Assembly: GCA_965659675.1 (NCBI GenBank) | Contig: CBFHWY010000004.1 | Coordinates: forward strand, 8,110-72,109 | Length of the DNA: 64,000 nt | Source: Salibacteraceae bacterium | GTDB taxonomy: Bacteria; Bacteroidota; Bacteroidia; Flavobacteriales_G; Salibacteraceae | Direction of reading: 5' to 3' | Shown: positions 10,142 through 32,230 of the stretch, piece by piece | How positions within the stretch are numbered: position 1 is the first letter of the stretch | How the letters are laid out: every line of letters begins with the position of its first letter | The notes under the pieces: generated by a model | What the model saw: the letters and a program-made list of their open reading frames with translations, nothing else | What the model was told of the DNA's origin: nothing | The model's database searches: none | Translations under genes and position numbers: made by a program

Positions 10142-11083
10142 TTAAAAGTACTTTTTGTTCAAATCTAGATTTCCGCCGGTGAGGATTACGGCAATTTTTT
10201 GATCGGCGAAAATCGATTTGTTTTTGATGATTGCTGCGAGAGGAACTGCACAGGAAGGTTCTATGGTTTGTTTTAACTCTTCCCATACCATCTTCATTGC
10301 CTTAATGATCTCATCTTCACTGACTGTATAGATATGGTCAACATGTTTCCTGATCACCTCAAAAGTATGTTCACCAAGATTGGTTCTAAGTCCATCTGCA
10401 ATGGTTTGGGGATTTCCAACATCTTCAATTTTTCCGCTTTGTAATGACCGATAGGCATCATCAGCTTGCTCTGGCTCTCCTGCATAAACCATTATGTTCT
10501 TTCCAATCAGCTTTGCGGCAAGTGCAGTTCCACTTAAAAGTCCACCTCCCCCAACTGGGCAGATGATGGCATCAAGTACATCAAGTTCTTCCAGGATCTC
10601 CTGGGCACATGTTGATTGACCTAAGATGATATTTGGGTCGTTATAAGGATGAATAATGCTGGCGTTCCGTTTTTGCAACAATTCTTCAAGCTTGCTTTCG
10701 CGTGCCATTATGTTGGGCTCACAGAAAATGATCTCTGCTCCTTCCCTGCGCATGCCCTCCACTTTCACTTTCGGTGCATTTTCAGGTACAACCACAAAAC
10801 ACTTGATCCCATTTTTTCTTGCAGCAAGAGCAAGAGCTCTACCGTGGTTGCCAGAGGAATGGGTGGCGACATATTCTGGTTTCTCGAGCTTCAGCAGCTT
10901 CCGAATGGCATGCGTTGCGCCTCTGTACTTGAAGGCACCCCCTTTTTGAAGGTTCTCACACTTGAAATAAAGCTCAGCCCCAACAAGTTCGTTGAGATAC
11001 TCTGATCGAAGGATAGCTGTTTTGTTGACCTCATCGGCAATCAGCTGTCTTGCTTCGATCAGATCCGTTTTTGTGTAGTTCAA
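10142..11083 (-). CDS. PLP-dependent serine/threonine dehydratase family enzyme (fold type II; threonine ammonia-lyase / serine racemase-like)
   Basis: FKCENLQKGGAFKYRGA PLP-lysine motif; GGGGL glycine loop; 313 aa with no ACT regulatory domain. Confidence 0.85.
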   Translation of the reverse strand: MNYTKTDLIEARQLIADEVNKTAILRSEYLNELVGAELYFKCENLQKGGAFKYRGATHAIRKLLKLEKPEYVATHSSGNHGRALALAARKNGIKCFVVVPENAPKVKVEGMRREGAEIIFCEPNIMARESKLEELLQKRNASIIHPYNDPNIILGQSTCAQEILEELDVLDAIICPVGGGGLLSGTALAAKLIGKNIMVYAGEPEQADDAYRSLQSGKIEDVGNPQTIADGLRTNLGEHTFEVIRKHVDHIYTVSEDEIIKAMKMVWEELKQTIEPSCAVPLAAIIKNKSIFADQKIAVILTGGNLDLNKKYF

Positions 11084-11089
11084 GTGCTC

Positions 11090-11965
11090 CTATTTGCAAA
11101 GCAAATTAAGTGCTTTTGGGATGATATCAAAGCGTGCAGAGCCCGCACCAAAATATTCTCCATCGGCTTCCAAAGCACATCTTTCATCTAAAGTTTCAAC
11201 GGTGACCCATCGGCTTTTATGATAAAACACCTTGGGGTGATCAAGTCTTTGGCGCTTTTTAAGCTTTAGCACATTCAGGATATATTCAAGGATAGACAGG
11301 GCTTCAATCCTCGTGATCTGAAATTGTCCACTACTTATTTCCGCATCTGGAGCGACAAAAAGTCCACTACCAAAACTGCAGCCATTTGCTACAGTCAATG
11401 CGGCAATATCACCTTCCCAGCTGCCTCCTTCCCATGCTATCTTTACTGAATATGGTTCATATCTCACAAAGGCCAGGCTAATTGCTCGCAAATACCTAAG
11501 GCCTGGATGCCAGATCTTACTGCTTTTGTTCACGCGCTCAACCACTTCAGCCCCAAGTCCGAAATCAGCAATATTTAGGAAGTAATGTACCTGCTGCTTG
11601 CGAGTAATCTTTCCCAGGTCGGCAGGGCATGCTCTCATTTTTTCATGATCGAGTGCTTGTTCAATATTTTCGGGAAGCTTAAGGTTTCTGGCGAAGTCGT
11701 TCGCTGAACCCGCTGGAATGAGGCTTAATTTAGGAAGACTTCTCTCCTCTTCAATGCGCTTGCCGAGTACCTGCATCACTTCATTAAAGGTCCCATCACC
11801 TCCAATCACTATAAGGTGGTCCGCCTTTTCTATGACTTCCTCACAGATTCCTATGGCATGTTTGTGATACTCCGTAGCATGGATGTTTTCTTTTGGGACA
11901 CGCTCAATCCCTTTGAGCGCAGAACTCTTGAGTTTTCTGCCATTAAGAATTACCTGAACTCGCAT
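11090..11965 (-). CDS. Diacylglycerol-kinase catalytic-domain lipid kinase (YegS/BmrU-like)
   Basis: LIVIGGDGTFNEV motif and GSANDFAR motif, 291 aa. Confidence 0.8.
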   Translation of the reverse strand: MRVQVILNGRKLKSSALKGIERVPKENIHATEYHKHAIGICEEVIEKADHLIVIGGDGTFNEVMQVLGKRIEEERSLPKLSLIPAGSANDFARNLKLPENIEQALDHEKMRACPADLGKITRKQQVHYFLNIADFGLGAEVVERVNKSSKIWHPGLRYLRAISLAFVRYEPYSVKIAWEGGSWEGDIAALTVANGCSFGSGLFVAPDAEISSGQFQITRIEALSILEYILNVLKLKKRQRLDHPKVFYHKSRWVTVETLDERCALEADGEYFGAGSARFDIIPKALNLLCK

Positions 11966-11987
11966 GCTTCGTGGTCACATGACAAGG

Positions 11988-13430
11988 CTAATATTGGATA
12001 CATACATTCTTGGCCTCCGTAAAAAAGCGCAAGGCTTCAAAACCTCCTTCGCGGCCAATACCCGAATTCTTAACACCTCCAAATGGAGTGCGAAGGTCCC
12101 TCACCAACCATGAGTTGATCCACACAATGCCTGCGTCTATATTTCTAGCTACGCGATGGGCCTTTCTTAGGTTTTCGGTCCATACCGAAGCAGCCAAACC
12201 GTAAACCGTGCTATTCGCCATCATCAGCGCCTCCTCTTCCGAATCAAAGGGCATGAGGGTGACCACTGGACCAAATATCTCTTCCTGATTCGTTCGGCAA
12301 TCGTAACTTAAGTTCTCAAAAACGGTCGGAGCAATGTAGAATCCGTCCTGATATTCACCAGACATATGAAGCTGCTCTCCTCCGCACAACAATTTTCCGC
12401 CTTCTTCTTTCGCAAGCTCGATGTAGGACAAAACCTTTTCCATGTGCGGTTTTGAAACCACCGCACCCACTTTAGAATTTGCTTCACTGGGCGGGCCAAC
12501 CTTCAATGCTTTCACTCGTTCAACAAAAGCATCCCTAAAACGATCATAAATACTGCGTTCTACAAAAACCCGTGATCCGCAAAGGCAGATCTGTCCCTGA
12601 TTCGAAAATGCAGCAGTGACCGTGGCTTTCACAGTATGTTCAAAGTCGCAGTCATCAAAGACAATGGTCGGGTTCTTCCCACCTAGTTCAAGACTGAGTT
12701 TTTTGAACATCGGAGCAGCTGTTCGGGCAATATATTCTCCTGTTTTTGTGCCTCCAGTGAAAGAGATCGCTTTGATCCCTGGGTGCTCCACCATGGCGGC
12801 ACCAACATCCGGGCCCATACCATGCACGATATTAAAAACCCCATTCGGAATTCCTGCTTGCTGACACAGTTCCGAAAGGAGATACGCCGTCATAGGGGTG
12901 ATCTCCGATGGCTTTGCCACCACTGTATTCCCCGAAGCCAGTGCCGGGGCCACCTTCCAGCTGAAAAGATATAAAGGTAGGTTCCAGGGAGAAATGCAAC
13001 CCACAACACCTATCGGCCCCCGAAGGGTGTAGTTCACCCCTCGATCTTCCATAGAATGTGACTCCGAAGCATAATGAAGAATTGCCGTGGCAAAAAAGTG
13101 AAAGTTGGCCACCGCTCTGGGGATATCCACCTTTTTTGCCAGCCAAAGTGGCTTTCCATTATCGAGTGATTCTGCTGCTGCCAGTCGGTCAAGATTATCT
13201 TCGATGAGCGAGGCGAGACGCATAAGGATCTTACTTCGCTCTTCTTTTGGCGTATTCGACCATGAAGGAAAGGCTGCTTTAGCGGCCTCATATGCTTCTT
13301 CAACATCAGCTTTTCCGCTCTTTGGGATCTGGCTGTAAACCTTTCCCCTGGAGGGATCGTAGTTATCAATATAACCACCCGACAGGGGGGCTTTTAATGC
13401 TCCGTTGATGTAGTTCTGGATCTTTGTCAT
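11988..13430 (-). CDS. NAD-dependent aldehyde dehydrogenase, ALDH8-like (2-amino/2-hydroxymuconic semialdehyde dehydrogenase-like)
   Basis: ELGGKNP and FSNQGQICLCGSR catalytic motifs. N-terminus MTKIQNYINGA... The 13-codon extension in the ORF track was trimmed. Confidence 0.9.
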   Translation of the reverse strand: MTKIQNYINGALKAPLSGGYIDNYDPSRGKVYSQIPKSGKADVEEAYEAAKAAFPSWSNTPKEERSKILMRLASLIEDNLDRLAAAESLDNGKPLWLAKKVDIPRAVANFHFFATAILHYASESHSMEDRGVNYTLRGPIGVVGCISPWNLPLYLFSWKVAPALASGNTVVAKPSEITPMTAYLLSELCQQAGIPNGVFNIVHGMGPDVGAAMVEHPGIKAISFTGGTKTGEYIARTAAPMFKKLSLELGGKNPTIVFDDCDFEHTVKATVTAAFSNQGQICLCGSRVFVERSIYDRFRDAFVERVKALKVGPPSEANSKVGAVVSKPHMEKVLSYIELAKEEGGKLLCGGEQLHMSGEYQDGFYIAPTVFENLSYDCRTNQEEIFGPVVTLMPFDSEEEALMMANSTVYGLAASVWTENLRKAHRVARNIDAGIVWINSWLVRDLRTPFGGVKNSGIGREGGFEALRFFTEAKNVCIQY

Positions 13431-13462
13431 GCTTTTTTCTGGAAGGACTAAAAGTAGAAAAA

Positions 13463-13501
13463 AGCCCAAATAAAAAGGGGGCCGCCCTAAAGCCCCCTTT
13501 T
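13463..13501 (-). terminator. Intrinsic terminator (minus strand)
   Basis: AAAAGGGGGC-N9-GCCCCCUUUU (arms 13501-13492 and 13482-13473) followed by UAUUUGGGCUUUUUU. The U-tract on the plus strand is weaker. Confidence 0.6.
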
Positions 13502-13522
13502 CTTATGATGTCACTGATCTCG

Positions 13523-13594
13523 CTAAAACTTCCGCGTAAAACGTGTGGTTGTCATGGTTGGAAGACGATTGCTCGTCTCAATGATCAGCGACAT
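13523..13594 (-). other. Candidate 23-codon sORF / leader peptide MSLIIETSNRLPTMTTTRFTRKF
   Basis: ATG 13594, TAG 13525-13523, 6 of 23 residues are Thr. Enclosed by the 10-bp helix 13592-13583 / 13519-13510. Coding status unproven. Confidence 0.25.
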
Positions 13595-13620
13595 GCAAAC
13601 CTCAATTATGAAACCGATAA

Positions 13621-13628
13621 CAAAACTA
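13621..13628 (-). promoter_or_regulatory. -7 box TAGTTTTG for the minus-strand leader/sRNA unit
   Basis: Exact TAnnTTTG on the minus strand, 26 nt upstream of the sORF ATG. Confidence 0.4.
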
Positions 13629-13647
13629 CCTGTGGGGCCATATTATT

Positions 13648-13687
13648 GTGTTAAGAGCTTTGTAATATGTGTTAAAGAGTGTTAAGC
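13648..13687 (+). repeat. Three direct repeats GTGTTAA(A)G at 13648, 13669 and 13679 (21- and 10-bp phasing); candidate response-regulator site
   Basis: GTGTTAAGAG, GTGTTAAAGAG and GTGTTAAGC lie between the two divergent -7 boxes (13621-28 and 13714-21). Confidence 0.4.
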
Positions 13688-13713
13688 ATTCTGCCCAAGG
13701 GACTTAGCAGGAA

Positions 13714-13721
13714 TACCTTTG
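13714..13721 (+). promoter_or_regulatory. -7 box TACCTTTG upstream of the histidine kinase gene
   Basis: Exact TAnnTTTG, 9 nt before ATG 13731. Confidence 0.4.
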
Positions 13722-13730
13722 ATCTCGCAG

Positions 13731-15356
13731 ATGAATCTGATCAAGAACATAAAGTTACTCATTTTGATCATGACACTCACATTGATCGGCTTGATCAGTA
13801 TCGAGTTTTATTGGATCAGTAATGATATATCTCTTCGAGAAGAGGAGTTCAGCTTCCATGTAAAATCGGCTCTGGATAAGGTCAGCGAGCAACTTGAAAA
13901 ACAAGAGGCTCTCAAACAGATCCGCTCTCACCAGGAAGGGCGCTTTTTATTTCTGGAAGAAGACTCCCTGCAATTCGGACAGGAGGTTTTTCCTGATTCA
14001 GGCTATCGCTACAGACTCATTCAACGTTTCAAAAAAGAAGGCGATAACGTGGAGATCGAAGTGCTTGAGGGAGATGAAGAAGTGAGTTCAAGCACAAGGG
14101 TCTTCAGTCCGGTTGACAAAGTTGAGAATCTTGAAATGCTCGACATGGATGTGGGCAAACGAAGTCATAAAAAGATCCTGGCATCTGACATGAAAGCCCT
14201 TTCAGATAGTGCGCTAAGAAGCCGCATGTTAAATAAAACGGTGCTCATCAGCGATATTGTGAAAAGCCTGATCGAGGTGAATCTATCGGAGTCGATTGAA
14301 GACAGGCTTGAACCCAAGGTCTTAGATAGTCTCATAAAAAGCTATTTGGCTGAGGAAGGAATTACAGCTCAATACCACTATCGGGTTTTGGATGAAGAAA
14401 ACCAGGTGAGGCTAACCAGCGTAAATAGGATAAAACAAGATCTTGAAGCCAGTTCGTATCGCGTGCGCTTGTTTCAAAAAGACATTATACAGGAGCCAGC
14501 ATTCCTTGAAGTGATCTTTCCGAGAAAAACAGGGTATCTGCTCAGTACCATGTGGTTTGTGCTGCTGATATCACTCCTATTCATTTCTGCCATCATCGTC
14601 ACCTACTACCTTACCATCAATACCATCATCAGGCAGAAAAAGATCTCGGAGATCAAGAATGACTTCATCAACAATATGACCCATGAGTTAAAGACTCCCA
14701 TCTCAACCATTTCTTTGGCCTGTGAAATGCTTAGCGACAAGGAGCTTCAGAAAGACCCTGGGATGCTCGAGCGCTATGTAGGAATGATCCATGAAGAGAA
14801 TGATCGTTTGTCTTTACAGGTGGAGAATGTCTTGCAATCTGCCATTTGGGGAAGTGGAAGGATCAGGCTGAAGCCAGAGAAACTGGATATTCATGAAGTG
14901 ATTCGAAATGCCAGCTCCTCGTTTGAGATCAAAATGAAAGAGGCCAATGCCGAGCTTAACATAGAGCTATCAGCCGAAGATCCGATCGTTCATGGCGATC
15001 GCATCCATCTCACGAATGTGATCAACAACCTTTTGGATAATGCCCTAAAATATTCGAGGGGTGATAAACGTATTGATATTGGGACAAACAATAACCCCAA
15101 AGGAGTTGTGATCAGCGTACAGGACAACGGCATAGGCATCAGCAAAGAGAATCAAAAGAAGATCTTTGATAAGCTATATCGTGTTTCGACTGGAAACCTA
15201 CACGATGTGAAAGGATTTGGGCTTGGGCTCAGCTATGTTAAAACCGTGGTTGAAAAACACCAGGGTTCAGTGAAAGTAGACAGTCACCTCGGAAAAGGAA
15301 GCACATTTGTGGTTTTCCTACCTTTTGAGAATCATTTAAACCTTAACCATGGATAA
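13731..15356 (+). CDS. Sensor histidine kinase
   Basis: Two TM segments; H-box NMTHELKTPIS; N/G boxes (NLLDNALKY, DNGIGI, GFGLGL). The ORF-track TTG at 13719 was trimmed to the ATG. Confidence 0.9.
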   Translation: MNLIKNIKLLILIMTLTLIGLISIEFYWISNDISLREEEFSFHVKSALDKVSEQLEKQEALKQIRSHQEGRFLFLEEDSLQFGQEVFPDSGYRYRLIQRFKKEGDNVEIEVLEGDEEVSSSTRVFSPVDKVENLEMLDMDVGKRSHKKILASDMKALSDSALRSRMLNKTVLISDIVKSLIEVNLSESIEDRLEPKVLDSLIKSYLAEEGITAQYHYRVLDEENQVRLTSVNRIKQDLEASSYRVRLFQKDIIQEPAFLEVIFPRKTGYLLSTMWFVLLISLLFISAIIVTYYLTINTIIRQKKISEIKNDFINNMTHELKTPISTISLACEMLSDKELQKDPGMLERYVGMIHEENDRLSLQVENVLQSAIWGSGRIRLKPEKLDIHEVIRNASSSFEIKMKEANAELNIELSAEDPIVHGDRIHLTNVINNLLDNALKYSRGDKRIDIGTNNNPKGVVISVQDNGIGISKENQKKIFDKLYRVSTGNLHDVKGFGLGLSYVKTVVEKHQGSVKVDSHLGKGSTFVVFLPFENHLNLNHG

Positions 15357-16038
15357 AGCGAGAATACTTTTAGTGGAAGATGACCCTAATTTGGGTACAA
15401 TTTTGAACGAATACCTTCAAGCCAAATCCTACGACAGCGTGCTGAAGAAAGACGGCAAAGAGGGTTTGGATGAATTTCTGAATGCAGATTATGACCTCTG
15501 TATTCTCGATGTGATGATGCCAATAAAAGATGGTTTCACTTTAGCCAAAGAGATTCGGCGGATCAATCATGAAGTGCCCATCATTTTCCTTACGGCAAAA
15601 TCAATGAAAGATGATAAGATCGAAGGTTTTAAAATTGGAGCCGACGATTACCTCACCAAGCCTTTTAGCATGGAGGAGCTACTGATGAGGGTGCAGGCAA
15701 TTCTGCGAAGAACTCGAATGGTGACCAAGGAAAAACAAAAGGAGCAGTTTGAGTTTGCCGGCTTCACCTTCAACTCTAAGAAACAGGTCTTGAGTTTCGG
15801 TGATGAAGAGAAGAAACTGACATCCAAGGAAAACGAATTACTTCGATTACTCTGTGTTCATATGAACGATGTGCTCGATCGCTCCTATGCATTAAAGAAA
15901 ATATGGGGAGACGACTCATACTTCAATTCTAGAAGTATGGATGTTTACATCACCAAACTCAGGAAATACTTAAAATCAGATGAGCGTGTGCAGCTCATTA
16001 ATGTACATGGTAAAGGCTTTAAGCTGGTGATCGTATGA
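15349..16038 (+). CDS. OmpR/PhoB-family response regulator
   Basis: Receiver domain (ILLVEDD...DLCILDVMMP) plus winged-helix C-domain. ATGGATAA overlap with the kinase gene. Confidence 0.92.
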   Translation: MDKARILLVEDDPNLGTILNEYLQAKSYDSVLKKDGKEGLDEFLNADYDLCILDVMMPIKDGFTLAKEIRRINHEVPIIFLTAKSMKDDKIEGFKIGADDYLTKPFSMEELLMRVQAILRRTRMVTKEKQKEQFEFAGFTFNSKKQVLSFGDEEKKLTSKENELLRLLCVHMNDVLDRSYALKKIWGDDSYFNSRSMDVYITKLRKYLKSDERVQLINVHGKGFKLVIV

Positions 16039-16044
16039 TCGGGC

Positions 16045-16491
16045 TTATTTTAGTTCGTAACCCGAACGCTTCCAGGCATCAATTCCGCCATTGAGGTTGT
16101 AAACTTCATTGAAGCCATTTTCAACAAGCATCTTAGCAGCGCTTGAGCTTCTTCCTCCAGCTTTGCAATAAACGTAAACGGGCTTGTTCTTATCAAGACT
16201 CTCCAGGTTATCTCTAAAGTCCTGATCGTAAAAGTCCATCTCCACAGCTTCAACATCAACCTTTCCACCTGCGATCTCACCAGGTGTTCTTACATCGAGA
16301 ATGGTAATGTCACCTGTTTCTGTTTCGAGTACCGATTTCAATTCACTGGCCTCAATGTTCTTAAAGGTGTTTACCTTTTGGGTCTTCTCCCCCTTATCAC
16401 CTTTTACAGTTTCTTGCTTCTGATTTTCACCTGCACAGGCTTGTAAGACGGTAAATGCAAAAATGATCGTAAAGATTCGAGTAAAGTTCAT
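16045..16491 (-). CDS. Rhodanese-domain lipoprotein
   Basis: Lipobox VLQAC and active-site loop CKAGGRS. Confidence 0.8.
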   Translation of the reverse strand: MNFTRIFTIIFAFTVLQACAGENQKQETVKGDKGEKTQKVNTFKNIEASELKSVLETETGDITILDVRTPGEIAGGKVDVEAVEMDFYDQDFRDNLESLDKNKPVYVYCKAGGRSSSAAKMLVENGFNEVYNLNGGIDAWKRSGYELK

Positions 16492-16496
16492 GTCTT

Positions 16497-16808
16497 CTAT
16501 TTTATGATTGGTCCATTCCAGGCCAGTATACCACCGGCAAGATTCACCAACCTTCCTTTAAATCCTAGTTGTTTCATCGCGTGGCATGCAGCAGCGCTTC
16601 TTTGACCACTCCTGCAATACACATAATAGTTCTTTGCCTTATCGAGCTCATTGAGCTTTGAGCTAAACTCAGGGTCCATCACATTGATAAGTGTGGCGTT
16701 CTCCAAATGGCCTTCCTCAAACTCCTGAGGGGTTCGCACATCGAGTAAAAAGGAGTTTTCGTCCTTCAACATCTCGTTCTCAAATTCGCCGGCAAAGAAT
16801 TCTTCCAT
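16497..16808 (-). CDS. Single-domain rhodanese (sulfurtransferase)
   Basis: Active-site loop CRSGQRS. ATG at 16808 preferred over the ORF-track TTG at 16814. Confidence 0.8.
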   Translation of the reverse strand: MEEFFAGEFENEMLKDENSFLLDVRTPQEFEEGHLENATLINVMDPEFSSKLNELDKAKNYYVYCRSGQRSAAACHAMKQLGFKGRLVNLAGGILAWNGPIIK

Positions 16809-16821
16809 GATCAATGAAGCC

Positions 16822-16829
16822 CAAAAATA
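16822..16829 (-). promoter_or_regulatory. -7 box TATTTTTG upstream of the rhodanese pair
   Basis: Exact TAnnTTTG on the minus strand, 13 nt from ATG 16808. Confidence 0.35.
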
Positions 16830-16899
16830 AGTCTTATTACCTTAGCGTTAGTATAATGCATTGAGACCATTGTCACATTGGCCTTAAATTTACCCTGAA

Positions 16900-18402
16900 T
16901 TGAATATTTATTCCAAGAAACAAGTTTGGAAGAGTTTGCTCTTTATTCTGGCTATGATCATCATTGGGTTCTCCCTTTGGTATACCAGCGTACTTGTTGA
17001 GAAGATCTCCAGTGAAGAACGCGAGCGCGTTGAGCTATGGGCACAAGCCATTCAGCGAAAAGCCAAACTTGTGAATTACACCGATCGCTTATTTGAGAAA
17101 CTCAGGGCGGAGGAGCGAAAGAAGGTAGAACAATGGCTCGAAGCTACTCGTCGACTGGCTTCTACTGATGTTAACTCAGATTTCAGCTTTTTGAGTCAGA
17201 TCGTACAAGACAATACAACGGTTCCAGTTATCCTCACCGATGCGAATAGAAATGTGATCGCCCATCGTAATCTCGACAAAGGAATTAGCAATGACAAAGA
17301 CAGCATGAAGGTCGAGATCTCGCGCATGGAAAGGCAGTATGACCCCATTGAGATCAACTATTTTCAAGATCAAAAGAATTTTCTTTTCTACAAAGACTCA
17401 AGACTGATCACAGAACTGGAAAAGACCTTTGAAGATCTGGAGAAATCATTCATAGCTGAAGTAGTGAAGAACTCAGTGAGTGTTCCGGTATTATACACAG
17501 ATGGAAGCGGTAAGGAAATCCTTGCCTTTGGAAACATCGACTCTAATGATCTGCTTGATGCTCAAGCTGCAGACCTTGTGCTTAGTGAGATGAGCGCAGA
17601 TAATGAGCCGATCAAGATCGAATTAAAAGAAGGAGACAATCATTTTATCTATTACAAGGATTCATGGTTGCTACAACAACTAAAGTGGTATCCGCTGGTT
17701 CAGTTCATTGTTATTGGATTCTTCATATTGATCGCCTATTTGATGTTCTCCAATGCTCGAAAGGTCGAACAAAATCAGGTTTGGGTGGGCATGGCTAAGG
17801 AAACAGCTCATCAGCTTGGAACTCCGTTATCATCTCTTATGGCATGGCATGAGATCATCAAAGAGTCGAAGCTCGATCAAAGCCTCGTAGATGAGCTCGA
17901 AAAGGATATTCAACGTTTTCAAACCATTACTGAGCGTTTTTCAAAGATCGGCTCTAAGCCAGAGCTTCTTGAAAACAGTTTACACAATGTGGTTTCCGAT
18001 AGTTTGACCTACATGCAAAGTAGAAGCCCGAAACAGGTGAAGTTTGAAATGGATGTTGAAAAGGATATTCAGGTCCGTTATAATCGACCGCTTTTTGAGT
18101 GGGTGATTGAAAACCTTGTGAGGAATAGCCTCGACGCGATGGAGGGTAAGGGATCGATCAGCATTAAAGCGACAAAAGAGTCATCGTGGATACATTTAGA
18201 TTTAAGTGATACCGGTAAAGGCATAGCTGCGAACAAAAGAAAACGCGTCTTTGAACCTGGGTTCACCACCAAAAAAAGAGGTTGGGGACTTGGCCTTTCT
18301 TTGGTCAAGCGGATCATTGAACAATACCATGGTGGGAAGATCTTCGTTTTAAACTCTAAACCTGGGGAGGGTAGCACCTTTCGAATCAGCTTCCCAAAGT
18401 AA
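16900..18402 (+). CDS. Sensor histidine kinase (no adjacent regulator)
   Basis: TTG start; two TM segments flank an extracytoplasmic domain of about 240 aa; H-box ETAHQLGTPLSS; HATPase motifs (DTGKGI, GWGLGLS). Confidence 0.85.
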   Translation: MNIYSKKQVWKSLLFILAMIIIGFSLWYTSVLVEKISSEERERVELWAQAIQRKAKLVNYTDRLFEKLRAEERKKVEQWLEATRRLASTDVNSDFSFLSQIVQDNTTVPVILTDANRNVIAHRNLDKGISNDKDSMKVEISRMERQYDPIEINYFQDQKNFLFYKDSRLITELEKTFEDLEKSFIAEVVKNSVSVPVLYTDGSGKEILAFGNIDSNDLLDAQAADLVLSEMSADNEPIKIELKEGDNHFIYYKDSWLLQQLKWYPLVQFIVIGFFILIAYLMFSNARKVEQNQVWVGMAKETAHQLGTPLSSLMAWHEIIKESKLDQSLVDELEKDIQRFQTITERFSKIGSKPELLENSLHNVVSDSLTYMQSRSPKQVKFEMDVEKDIQVRYNRPLFEWVIENLVRNSLDAMEGKGSISIKATKESSWIHLDLSDTGKGIAANKRKRVFEPGFTTKKRGWGLGLSLVKRIIEQYHGGKIFVLNSKPGEGSTFRISFPK

Positions 18403-31897: not shown

Positions 31898-31908
31898 ATT
31901 AAGAAGTT

Positions 31909-32100
31909 ATGGCACATCCAAAGCGAAAGCAATCGAAAACCAGAAGGGATAAAAGAAGAACCCACTACAAAGCTGATGCACCTACTGTAAGCATCTGTCC
32001 TACTACCGGTCAGCCTCACCTTCGTCACCGTGCTTACTGGCATGAAGGCAAGCTTTACTACAAGGGTAAGGTTGTGATGGAGAAAGACGTAGCTATTTAA
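31909..32100 (+). CDS. rpmF: 50S ribosomal protein L32
   Basis: [18 protein letters not shown]-terminus, 63 aa. Confidence 0.92.
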
Positions 32101-32126
32101 TTTAGTTGAGTAAAGGACCTAAGTCT

Positions 32127-32157
32127 ATGCCTTCCTGATTTGGAGGGCATTTTTTTT
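32127..32157 (+). terminator. Rho-independent terminator after rpmF
   Basis: ATGCCTTCC-TGATTT-GGAGGGCAT (9 bp including one G.U) followed by T7. Confidence 0.8.
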
Positions 32158-32230
32158 ATGCCTTATTTTAAGCTCAGGTTTTACTTAATAAGTCTTAATA
32201 TTGGCTTTTAAATAGATTAATATCTGATTC

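Follow-up and report, generated by a model that had tools for sequence, protein, structure and literature searches.

A conserved structured RNA divergent from an RprX/RprY-like two-component system probably represents a new small RNA family of marine Flavobacteriales

Examination of a 64-kb stretch of DNA from a Salibacteraceae bacterium (the window) revealed a conserved, structured noncoding RNA element on the minus strand of the spacer between an aldehyde dehydrogenase (ALDH) gene and a divergently oriented two-component system. The element is approximately 150 nt long and has promoter and terminator motifs of its own, from which we infer that it is transcribed. Its conserved partner is the two-component system, composed of a histidine kinase (HK) and a response regulator (RR), and not ALDH. 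The element probably represents a new family of small RNAs (sRNAs) in uncultured marine Flavobacteriales that is absent from Rfam, lies next to a regulator, and is subject to two-component control. We consider it fairly likely that the element is a trans-acting sRNA with conserved single-stranded segments, controlled by the adjacent two-component system.

Relatives of the element were sought with the ALDH protein in one genome per GTDB species, and then by a metagenome scan, protein look-ups, and a search with the kinase. The scan of the GTDB species genomes returned 47 loci, in which ALDH was at most 73% identical and the upstream contexts were unrelated. The element was found at none of these 47 loci, and therefore does not travel with ALDH. 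Metagenome contigs of marine Flavobacteriales yielded eight further sequence variants, with about six lineages in all. The comparative set used below accordingly comprises nine variants, the window and these eight, of which only about six lineages are independent.

The element was located upstream of ALDH in L049/L058, L050/L085-L090, L083/L084, and L091-L095, where ALDH is 81-85% identical to that of the window. At L096/L098/L100, with an ALDH of 76% identity, the element is not beside ALDH but upstream of a DUF4139/CarboxypepD_reg gene, and it is still divergent from the same kinase-regulator pair. Two more carriers emerged from the kinase-based search, L101 and L102, whose kinases are 53% and 51% identical, respectively, and in both the element is likewise divergent from the kinase gene. 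The element was thus seen with kinases of about 51% identity or more. The element is thus divergent from the HK-RR pair in every carrier, and because this linkage is kept while the downstream gene changes between ALDH and DUF4139, the two-component system is the conserved partner. The initial annotation of the window had titled the element as lying upstream of the ALDH operon; the association that is conserved is instead with the divergent RprX/RprY-like two-component system.

The HK gene spans 13731-15356 of the window, and the RR gene follows directly at 15349-16038. The RR scored 349.9 bits (E = 5.6e-105) with the NCBIfam equivalog model for RprY (NF051850), short of its cut-off of 370; PhoB came second with 186.8 bits, and the HK matched generic kinase-core models only. 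The rprX gene is adjacent to rprY in Bacteroidetes (PMC6032018), and RprY, an OmpR/PhoB-family regulator, binds its own promoter in Porphyromonas gingivalis (PMC5706477).

The sigma-A consensus of Bacteroidota is TAnnTTTG, and this -7 box occupies positions -12 to -5 in flavobacteria (PMC9723704). The HK/RprY-like operon is preceded by a box, TACCTTTG (13714-13721, plus strand), that matches TAnnTTTG, and a box of this form is kept at the HK position in all eight lineages aligned, Salibacter included. For the sRNA, a promoter of its own is indicated at the level of the same motif by a box read from the minus strand, TAGTTTTG (13621-13628). This box is invariant in the carriers with the exception of L092, where it reads TAATTTTG, a form also present in Salibacter, and the spacer upstream of it varies. 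As the -7 box occupies -12 to -5, the transcript would start near 13616 (13618-13614) and have a length of approximately 150 nt, the likely extent being ~13616 to ~13468.

Three direct repeats, each reading TTAACAC on the minus strand, lie between the two promoters and are candidate sites for the RR. Box 1 is found at 13679-13685, box 2 at 13669-13675, a spacing of 10 bp, and box 3 at 13648-13654, 21 bp from box 2. Box 3 begins at a distance of 26 bp upstream from the -7 box of the sRNA and would thus cover the -33 region of this promoter. In the eight lineages aligned, Salibacter among them, the TTAAC cores do not change, and the spacers between the boxes vary freely. Direct repeats with a period of approximately 10 bp are the usual type of site for dimers of the OmpR/PhoB family, and the RR is predicted to bind the TTAAC repeats. 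No other TTAAC-N5-TTAAC pair was found in the 64-kb window, where about three would be expected at up to one mismatch, and thus no further members of the regulon are visible there.

Salibacter halophilus, with a kinase 44% identical to that of the window, is without this RNA, and the same promoter layout there drives a gene of 120 aa. The locus (WACR01000006.1; L104:2884-3003, minus strand) has the kinase -7 box, three TTAAC repeats with spacings of 10 and 21 bp, and the -7 box TAATTTTG. The regulatory module appears older than the RNA that it drives. The product of the 120-aa gene has no Pfam match, and its N-terminus resembles a lipoprotein signal.

Beyond the two-component system, on the side away from the element, we also observed a conserved block of genes (15349-18402 in the window; L100:846-5491). 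In it are rhodanese-domain genes (one or two), a further gene of the histidine-kinase type, approximately 500 aa long and without an adjacent regulator, and a HemN-like radical SAM gene, and L100 has a cbb3 oxidase/FixGHI cluster on the other side. With its respiratory and redox flavor, this neighborhood fits what has been reported of the RprY regulon in P. gingivalis (oxidative stress and Na+-NQR).

The promoter box, short open reading frame (sORF), outer helix, hairpin, terminator, and second box described in the initial annotation were all recovered at the positions given there. The spacer that contains them is a divergent intergenic region between ALDH on the minus strand and the HK start codon at 13731. 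It had been called the largest noncoding gap of the window, with 288 bp; it measures 300 nt (13431-13730), and the rank probably holds, because the sole other ORF-poor gap of similar size, at 31908-32160 on the plus strand, contains an rpmF-like gene (ribosomal protein L32). A hairpin terminator, GCCTTCC-TGATTT-GGAGGGC with a T-run behind it, lies downstream of that gene.

A covariance model (CM) of the element, R1, matched 13464-13620 of the minus strand with 169.1 bits (E = 2e-38). Neither the CM nor a repeat search found a further copy in the 64-kb window, and no copies were found in the viral contigs searched; an origin as a repeat or mobile element was rejected accordingly.

The modeled fold consists of a 5' hairpin, a long closing helix (P1) of 11-12 bp, a region of internal hairpins that varies between clades, and a terminator hairpin with a conserved loop. 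The 5' hairpin, CGGUU-UCAU-AAUUG (13603-13616), was obtained with RNAalifold and lies within a nearly invariant 24-nt segment at the 5' end. The arms of P1, AUGUCGCUGAUC (13583-13594) and GAUCAGUGACAU (13508-13519), appeared both in the predicted fold and with RNAalifold. The initial annotation had noted the inner part of P1 as a 10-bp helix pairing 13592-13583 with 13519-13510, with one G·U pair; we found this helix as described, and folding prediction lengthens it to 12 bp (13594-13583 with 13519-13508). Inside P1, hairpin P2 reads GAGACGA-GCAA-UCGUCUU, with a GNRA tetraloop (13562-13579). It is followed by the conserved and mostly unpaired segment UCCAACCAUGA(C/G)AAC (13548-13562), a candidate seed in which UCCAACCAUGA itself spans 13562-13552. 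A second conserved segment in the alignment, GAAGUUUUAGCGA (13520-13532), lies directly 5' of the P1 3' arm.

The intrinsic terminator, identified from the sequence and the predicted fold, occupies 13468-13501 and has the stem AAAAGGGGGC/GCCCCCUUUU, a 9-nt loop UUUAGGGCG, and the U-tract UUUUUAUUU. The stem-loop proper covers 13501-13473 and has a G+C-rich stem of 10-12 bp, after which the U-tract follows. The simple terminator scan that we used allows loops of up to 8 nt and missed this hairpin solely through its 9-nt loop. The fold energy of the minus strand is -49.9 kcal/mol (z = -3.8 against dinucleotide shuffles). The plus strand folds nearly as well (z = -3.6), and therefore folding energy alone leaves the strand open.

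Comparison between lineages indicated purifying selection on the element. Identity of the RNA is 70-89% among lineages for which the fourfold synonymous sites of ALDH are 22-31% identical (saturated) and the ALDH DNA as a whole 66-73%. The ~110 nt between promoter and terminator are more conserved than coding DNA. With the alignment of nine sequences, RNAalifold recovered the 5' hairpin, P1, and the terminator. In the CM alignment, which leans toward the modeled structure, 98.1% of cells pair, and nine pairs are changed on both sides, compared to 0-2 in controls in which the 3' partners were slid by 1-3 columns. A covariation score as high as that observed was reached by none of 500 shuffles.

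The compensatory changes fall in the outer helix and the terminator. Four of the eight modeled P1 pairs are changed on both sides, and in L096 the helix is fully rewritten as GAUUCGUCAAC/GUUGACGAAUC. In the terminator, 5 of 11 modeled pairs are changed on both sides, as in the replacement of GGGGGC/GCCCCC by GGGAGU/ACUCCC, and the loop core UAGGGC is invariant while its stem covaries. The five pairs of the 5' hairpin are paired in all cells, and two of them, G·U in most sequences, are A-U in L050 and L087. None of the nine variants departs from CCAACCAUGA or from the AAC that follows it, in a segment that is unpaired in most predicted folds. The segment GAAGUUUUAGCGA is nearly invariant, with AAG, UUUAGCG, and flanking bases kept in the nine-sequence alignment.

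The clades differ in their internal hairpins, P2 and P3. Within the window clade the P2 loops read GCAA, GAAA, GUAA, GUGA, and GGAA, all of the GNRA type. Only a 5-bp core of the P2 stem is kept in the relatives, the second pair of the 7-bp stem being broken in four of five variants. In place of this hairpin L101 carries GCUC-GCAA-GAGC, and a longer one, its loop predicted as AAUCCC, is present in L096 and L102. The covariation for which the initial annotation proposed a test is present in the outer helix and the terminator; the GNRA hairpin has weak statistical support and is replaced in L096, L102, and L101. We observed separately that L101, L096, and L102 share a motif, GUCAAUCCC (columns 41-49 and 55-63 of alignment A3), that is absent from the window clade. 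Its contexts differ: the AAUCCC part forms the predicted P2 loop in L096 and L102, and in L101 the motif is 5' of the GNRA-capped hairpin and mostly unpaired. A kissing interaction of the P2 and terminator loops was considered upon inspection of the predicted folds and rejected, as it would have at most three G-C pairs in one clade and none in the window clade.

The initial annotation cited G·U pairs as evidence for the minus strand; across the variants, 22 of 216 cells are G·U, and each would be an A·C on the plus strand. The G·U pairs, the GNRA loops, the conserved -7 box, and the U-tract all fit the minus strand, which is therefore the strand of the RNA.

These data also bear on whether the spacer holds DNA-level signals only, that is, a bidirectional promoter and a bidirectional terminator with no functional RNA between them. 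The repeats and promoter boxes are clearly DNA signals, and the hairpin of the terminator is close to symmetric and gives a score on the plus strand too. However, the ~110-nt stretch from promoter to terminator exceeds coding DNA in conservation and includes a helix in which compensatory changes and G·U pairs occur, whereas the spacers between the boxes, where only DNA-level function would be expected, vary freely. We regard this explanation as highly improbable.

We then examined the coding potential of the element. In the window, the ATG at 13594 opens the 23-codon sORF MSLIIETSNRLPTMTTTRFTRKF with six Thr codons (stop at 13525-13523). In L049 this frame stops after five codons, in L050 the sORF is in another frame and has 14 codons, and L096, L101, and L102 have no ATG at the start position. 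From an internal ATG the frame varies and the peptides have between 4 and 22 residues, with T-T-S or R-T in place of the Thr run. The Thr-rich sORF of the initial annotation therefore is real in the window, but its frame, length, start codon, and Thr run are not conserved among the variants. No conserved ORF was found on either strand across the nine variants.

The closest approach to one is an antisense ORF of 25 codons, MKPITKLPVGPYYCVKSFVICVKEC (13609-13686, plus strand, stop codon included), with the pattern MKPITKL..YCV..F...VK.C. It overlaps the 5' end of the sRNA, the -7 box, and the three repeats. This ORF was considered as a gene and rejected: L102 has AAG for its ATG, in L101 it ends at codon 19, and its position is shared with the promoter and the repeat boxes. 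The constant spacing of the promoter elements has probably produced this ORF incidentally, as fixed distances between the -7 box and the repeats would keep it free of insertions and deletions. The possibility that the locus is a small protein gene, using either the sense ORF (MTTT...) or the antisense ORF, gains from the latter being intact and exactly 25 codons long in seven of nine variants. Set against this are the breaks in L101 and L102, the overlap with promoter signals, antisense substitutions that are not concentrated at third codon positions, and the lack of conservation of the sense ORFs, which also leaves without support the micro-protein form of the second hypothesis in the initial annotation. 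Furthermore, neither ORF explains the covariation of P1 and the terminator. A small protein gene is very unlikely.

The Thr codons had led the initial annotation to propose, as its first hypothesis, a leader-peptide attenuator or riboswitch-like leader for the operon downstream. This operon (10142-13430, minus strand) encodes the ALDH, for which the best model is 2-hydroxymuconic semialdehyde dehydrogenase, below the equivalog cut-off; a YegS-family lipid kinase, above the subfamily cut-off; and a pyridoxal phosphate-dependent member of the serine/threonine dehydratase superfamily, for which the best model is BhcB (beta-hydroxyaspartate dehydratase), below the cut-off. ALDH and the lipid kinase are found together in all relatives examined, and the dehydratase is missing from L096-L098, L100, and L102. 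A window sORF with 6 Thr in 23 codons, a terminator after it, and a BhcB-like dehydratase-superfamily gene downstream are what an attenuator responding to Thr codons might look like. Yet the sORF is broken, shifted, or without a start in the relatives, and the element is not tied to ALDH, the downstream gene being DUF4139 in L096/L100. Inspection of the nine variants and their folds, in agreement with the initial annotation, revealed no antiterminator: no upstream segment is complementary to either terminator arm in any variant, and there is therefore no attenuator switch. We give a Thr-codon attenuator next to no credence, and its removal as a false lead means that the ALDH operon here should be annotated without one.

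A cis-acting leader that does not depend on the sORF requires separate consideration. In such a leader, riboswitch-like or protein-dependent, the P1 domain would sense a ligand or factor and set the read-through of the terminator into ALDH or DUF4139. Internal hairpins enclosed by a closing helix, and a terminator right behind it, have the appearance of such a leader, and GNRA loops are common in folded RNAs with tertiary structure. Moreover, the next gene is on the same strand in all carriers, and L096 shows no clear -7 box between the terminator and the DUF4139 start. However, no antiterminator can form, as nothing upstream pairs with the terminator arms, the class of the downstream gene varies, and the internal hairpins are not conserved between clades, which is unusual for the core of an aptamer.

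In addition, ALDH keeps a -7-like box of its own, TACTTTTA (13449-13456, minus strand), 18 nt before the ALDH ATG at 13430 and outside the RNA. The initial annotation had pointed out this box, and it is conserved in the window clade and L102. In L102, moreover, the element and ALDH are set apart by ~110 additional nt with a second terminator-like hairpin (L102:2500-2650, minus strand). This G+C-rich hairpin, GGGGGACUCUUCCAGAGCCCCC, is followed by a T-run and lies directly before the conserved ALDH promoter segment TTTTTTCTACTTTTAG; the extra ~110 nt could be another small transcript or the remnant of an insertion. We consider a cis-acting leader unlikely. Its combination with the regulator, a device of two layers in which the P1 domain, GNRA-capped here, acts as a ligand- or protein-responsive cis sensor gating its own terminator while the RprX/RprY-like system drives the promoter, seems to us a long shot, and would, if true, constitute a new riboswitch-like class in marine Flavobacteriales. 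The second hypothesis of the initial annotation, an independent transcription unit, fared better in its sRNA form: the promoter box, the structure, the terminator, and the separate ALDH -7 box are all conserved, and the second hairpin of L102 agrees with it.

The above considerations point to a trans-acting sRNA that would work as follows. The phosphorylated RR would bind the three TTAAC repeats between the back-to-back promoters, and the bound regulator would co-regulate its own operon and the sRNA. Transcription of the sRNA would start approximately 5 nt past the sigma-A-type -7 box, near 13616, and end at the terminator near 13468. The sRNA may then pair in trans with mRNAs encoded elsewhere, through its unpaired conserved segments: UCCAACCAUGA, GAAGUUUUAGCGA, the terminator loop UUUAGGGCG, and the 24 nt at the 5' end. 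Such pairing would extend the two-component regulon post-transcriptionally.

Several points weigh against this interpretation. The 5' and 3' ends of the transcript rest on motifs. The RR scores just under the RprY equivalog cut-off, and no published consensus for RprY binding was found in the RprY literature searched, which included PMC5706477 and PMC6032018. The CM alignment leans toward the modeled structure and draws on only about six independent lineages, and P2, the GNRA hairpin, has weak statistical support. A domain closed by P1 with internal helices, which runs straight into a terminator and in all cases has the orientation of the next gene, resembles a cis-acting leader as well. Finally, duplex scans over the 64-kb window gave nothing above background: with all start regions in the window scanned, the best duplex, at an L25/Ctc-like gene, had -21.3 kcal/mol and was within the background tail. 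An exact 10-nt complement to the seed, TCATGGTTGG, is present in the ALDH coding region (12104-12113, minus strand; codons S-W-L), where about 0.1 would be expected in the window. The ALDH mRNA was nonetheless rejected as a target, because the codons at 12104-12113 differ at synonymous sites in every relative, and the complement is therefore a chance match.

That no convincing mRNA target was found in the 64-kb window could also be taken to suggest that the sRNA, independently transcribed, binds or sequesters a protein through its conserved loops, for example an RRM-type protein or a component of the two-component pathway. The Bacteroides RRM-1 protein RbpB binds single-stranded regions of sRNAs (PMC11697453). 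In the element, two similar conserved motifs occur in unpaired contexts, UUUUAGCGA and the terminator loop UUUAGGGCG, and the latter is invariant while its stem covaries. On the other hand, the failure to find a target means little, since the search covered 64 kb only, and nothing points to a protein partner. The invariant UCCAACCAUGA also includes the complement of a start codon, typical of seeds for translation-initiation regions, as in GibS. We therefore hold a protein-binding role to be improbable, and favor base pairing as the predicted mode of action of the sRNA.

If the coupling of the sRNA to the RprX/RprY-like system is true, the two-component system gains a post-transcriptional arm, and its candidate operator would be the three TTAAC repeats spaced 10 and 21 bp apart. 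A clean comparison would also be at hand, since in Salibacter this promoter architecture serves a protein-coding gene. Little is understood of the output of RprX/RprY-like systems, even in the oral and gut species of their discovery. Regulation by sRNAs is likewise poorly charted in Bacteroidota, the few studied cases being gut Bacteroides and one fish pathogen, and the element adds a covariation-supported sRNA family from abundant, uncultured marine Flavobacteriales.

We compared the element with known RNAs. A scan with Rfam 15, the check proposed in the initial annotation, matched no known family: there were no matches at the gathering score across the whole window, and a permissive scan gave at best 14-17 bits against thresholds of 37-91. 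These matches covered the terminator only and amount to terminator-like noise.

Two-component systems control several enterobacterial sRNAs, including OmrA/OmrB and MicF (EnvZ-OmpR) and MgrR (PhoQ-PhoP), and other sRNA genes are divergent from the gene of their own regulator, as with OxyS-oxyR, GcvB-gcvA, and SgrS-sgrR. Like these, the element is short, with its own promoter and intrinsic terminator motifs, no conserved ORF, and conserved unpaired segments, and it adjoins an OmpR/PhoB-type regulator that most likely controls it. It has, however, no sequence or structural homology to them and no Rfam match, and the link to the regulator is here deduced from synteny and repeats. To our knowledge, Bacteroidota are without Hfq and without Shine-Dalgarno-led translation initiation, and use TAnnTTTG promoters.

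The element also has a short ORF with a codon run before a terminator in the window, as do the thr, trp, and his leaders and the Bacteroidetes trp leader in Rfam. Unlike in these amino-acid leaders, the ORF and the downstream gene are not conserved, there is no antiterminator, and Rfam gives no match.

Within the Bacteroidota, GibS and the FopS family of Bacteroides thetaiotaomicron are intergenic sRNAs with sigma-A-type promoters and terminator hairpins, whose conserved single-stranded seeds pair with translation-initiation regions (PMC7366714, PMC11697453). The element differs from them in sequence and fold, is single-copy whereas FopS is multicopy, is linked to a two-component system and not to polysaccharide utilization, and is found in marine Flavobacteriales and not in gut Bacteroides. 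The Rfp sRNAs of Flavobacterium psychrophilum, for example Rfp18, are structured and independently transcribed, are kept outside the species as well, and have base pairing as their predicted mode of action (PMC9723704). The comparison of the element with the Rfp sRNAs covers these general features, and the element differs from them in genomic context and clade.

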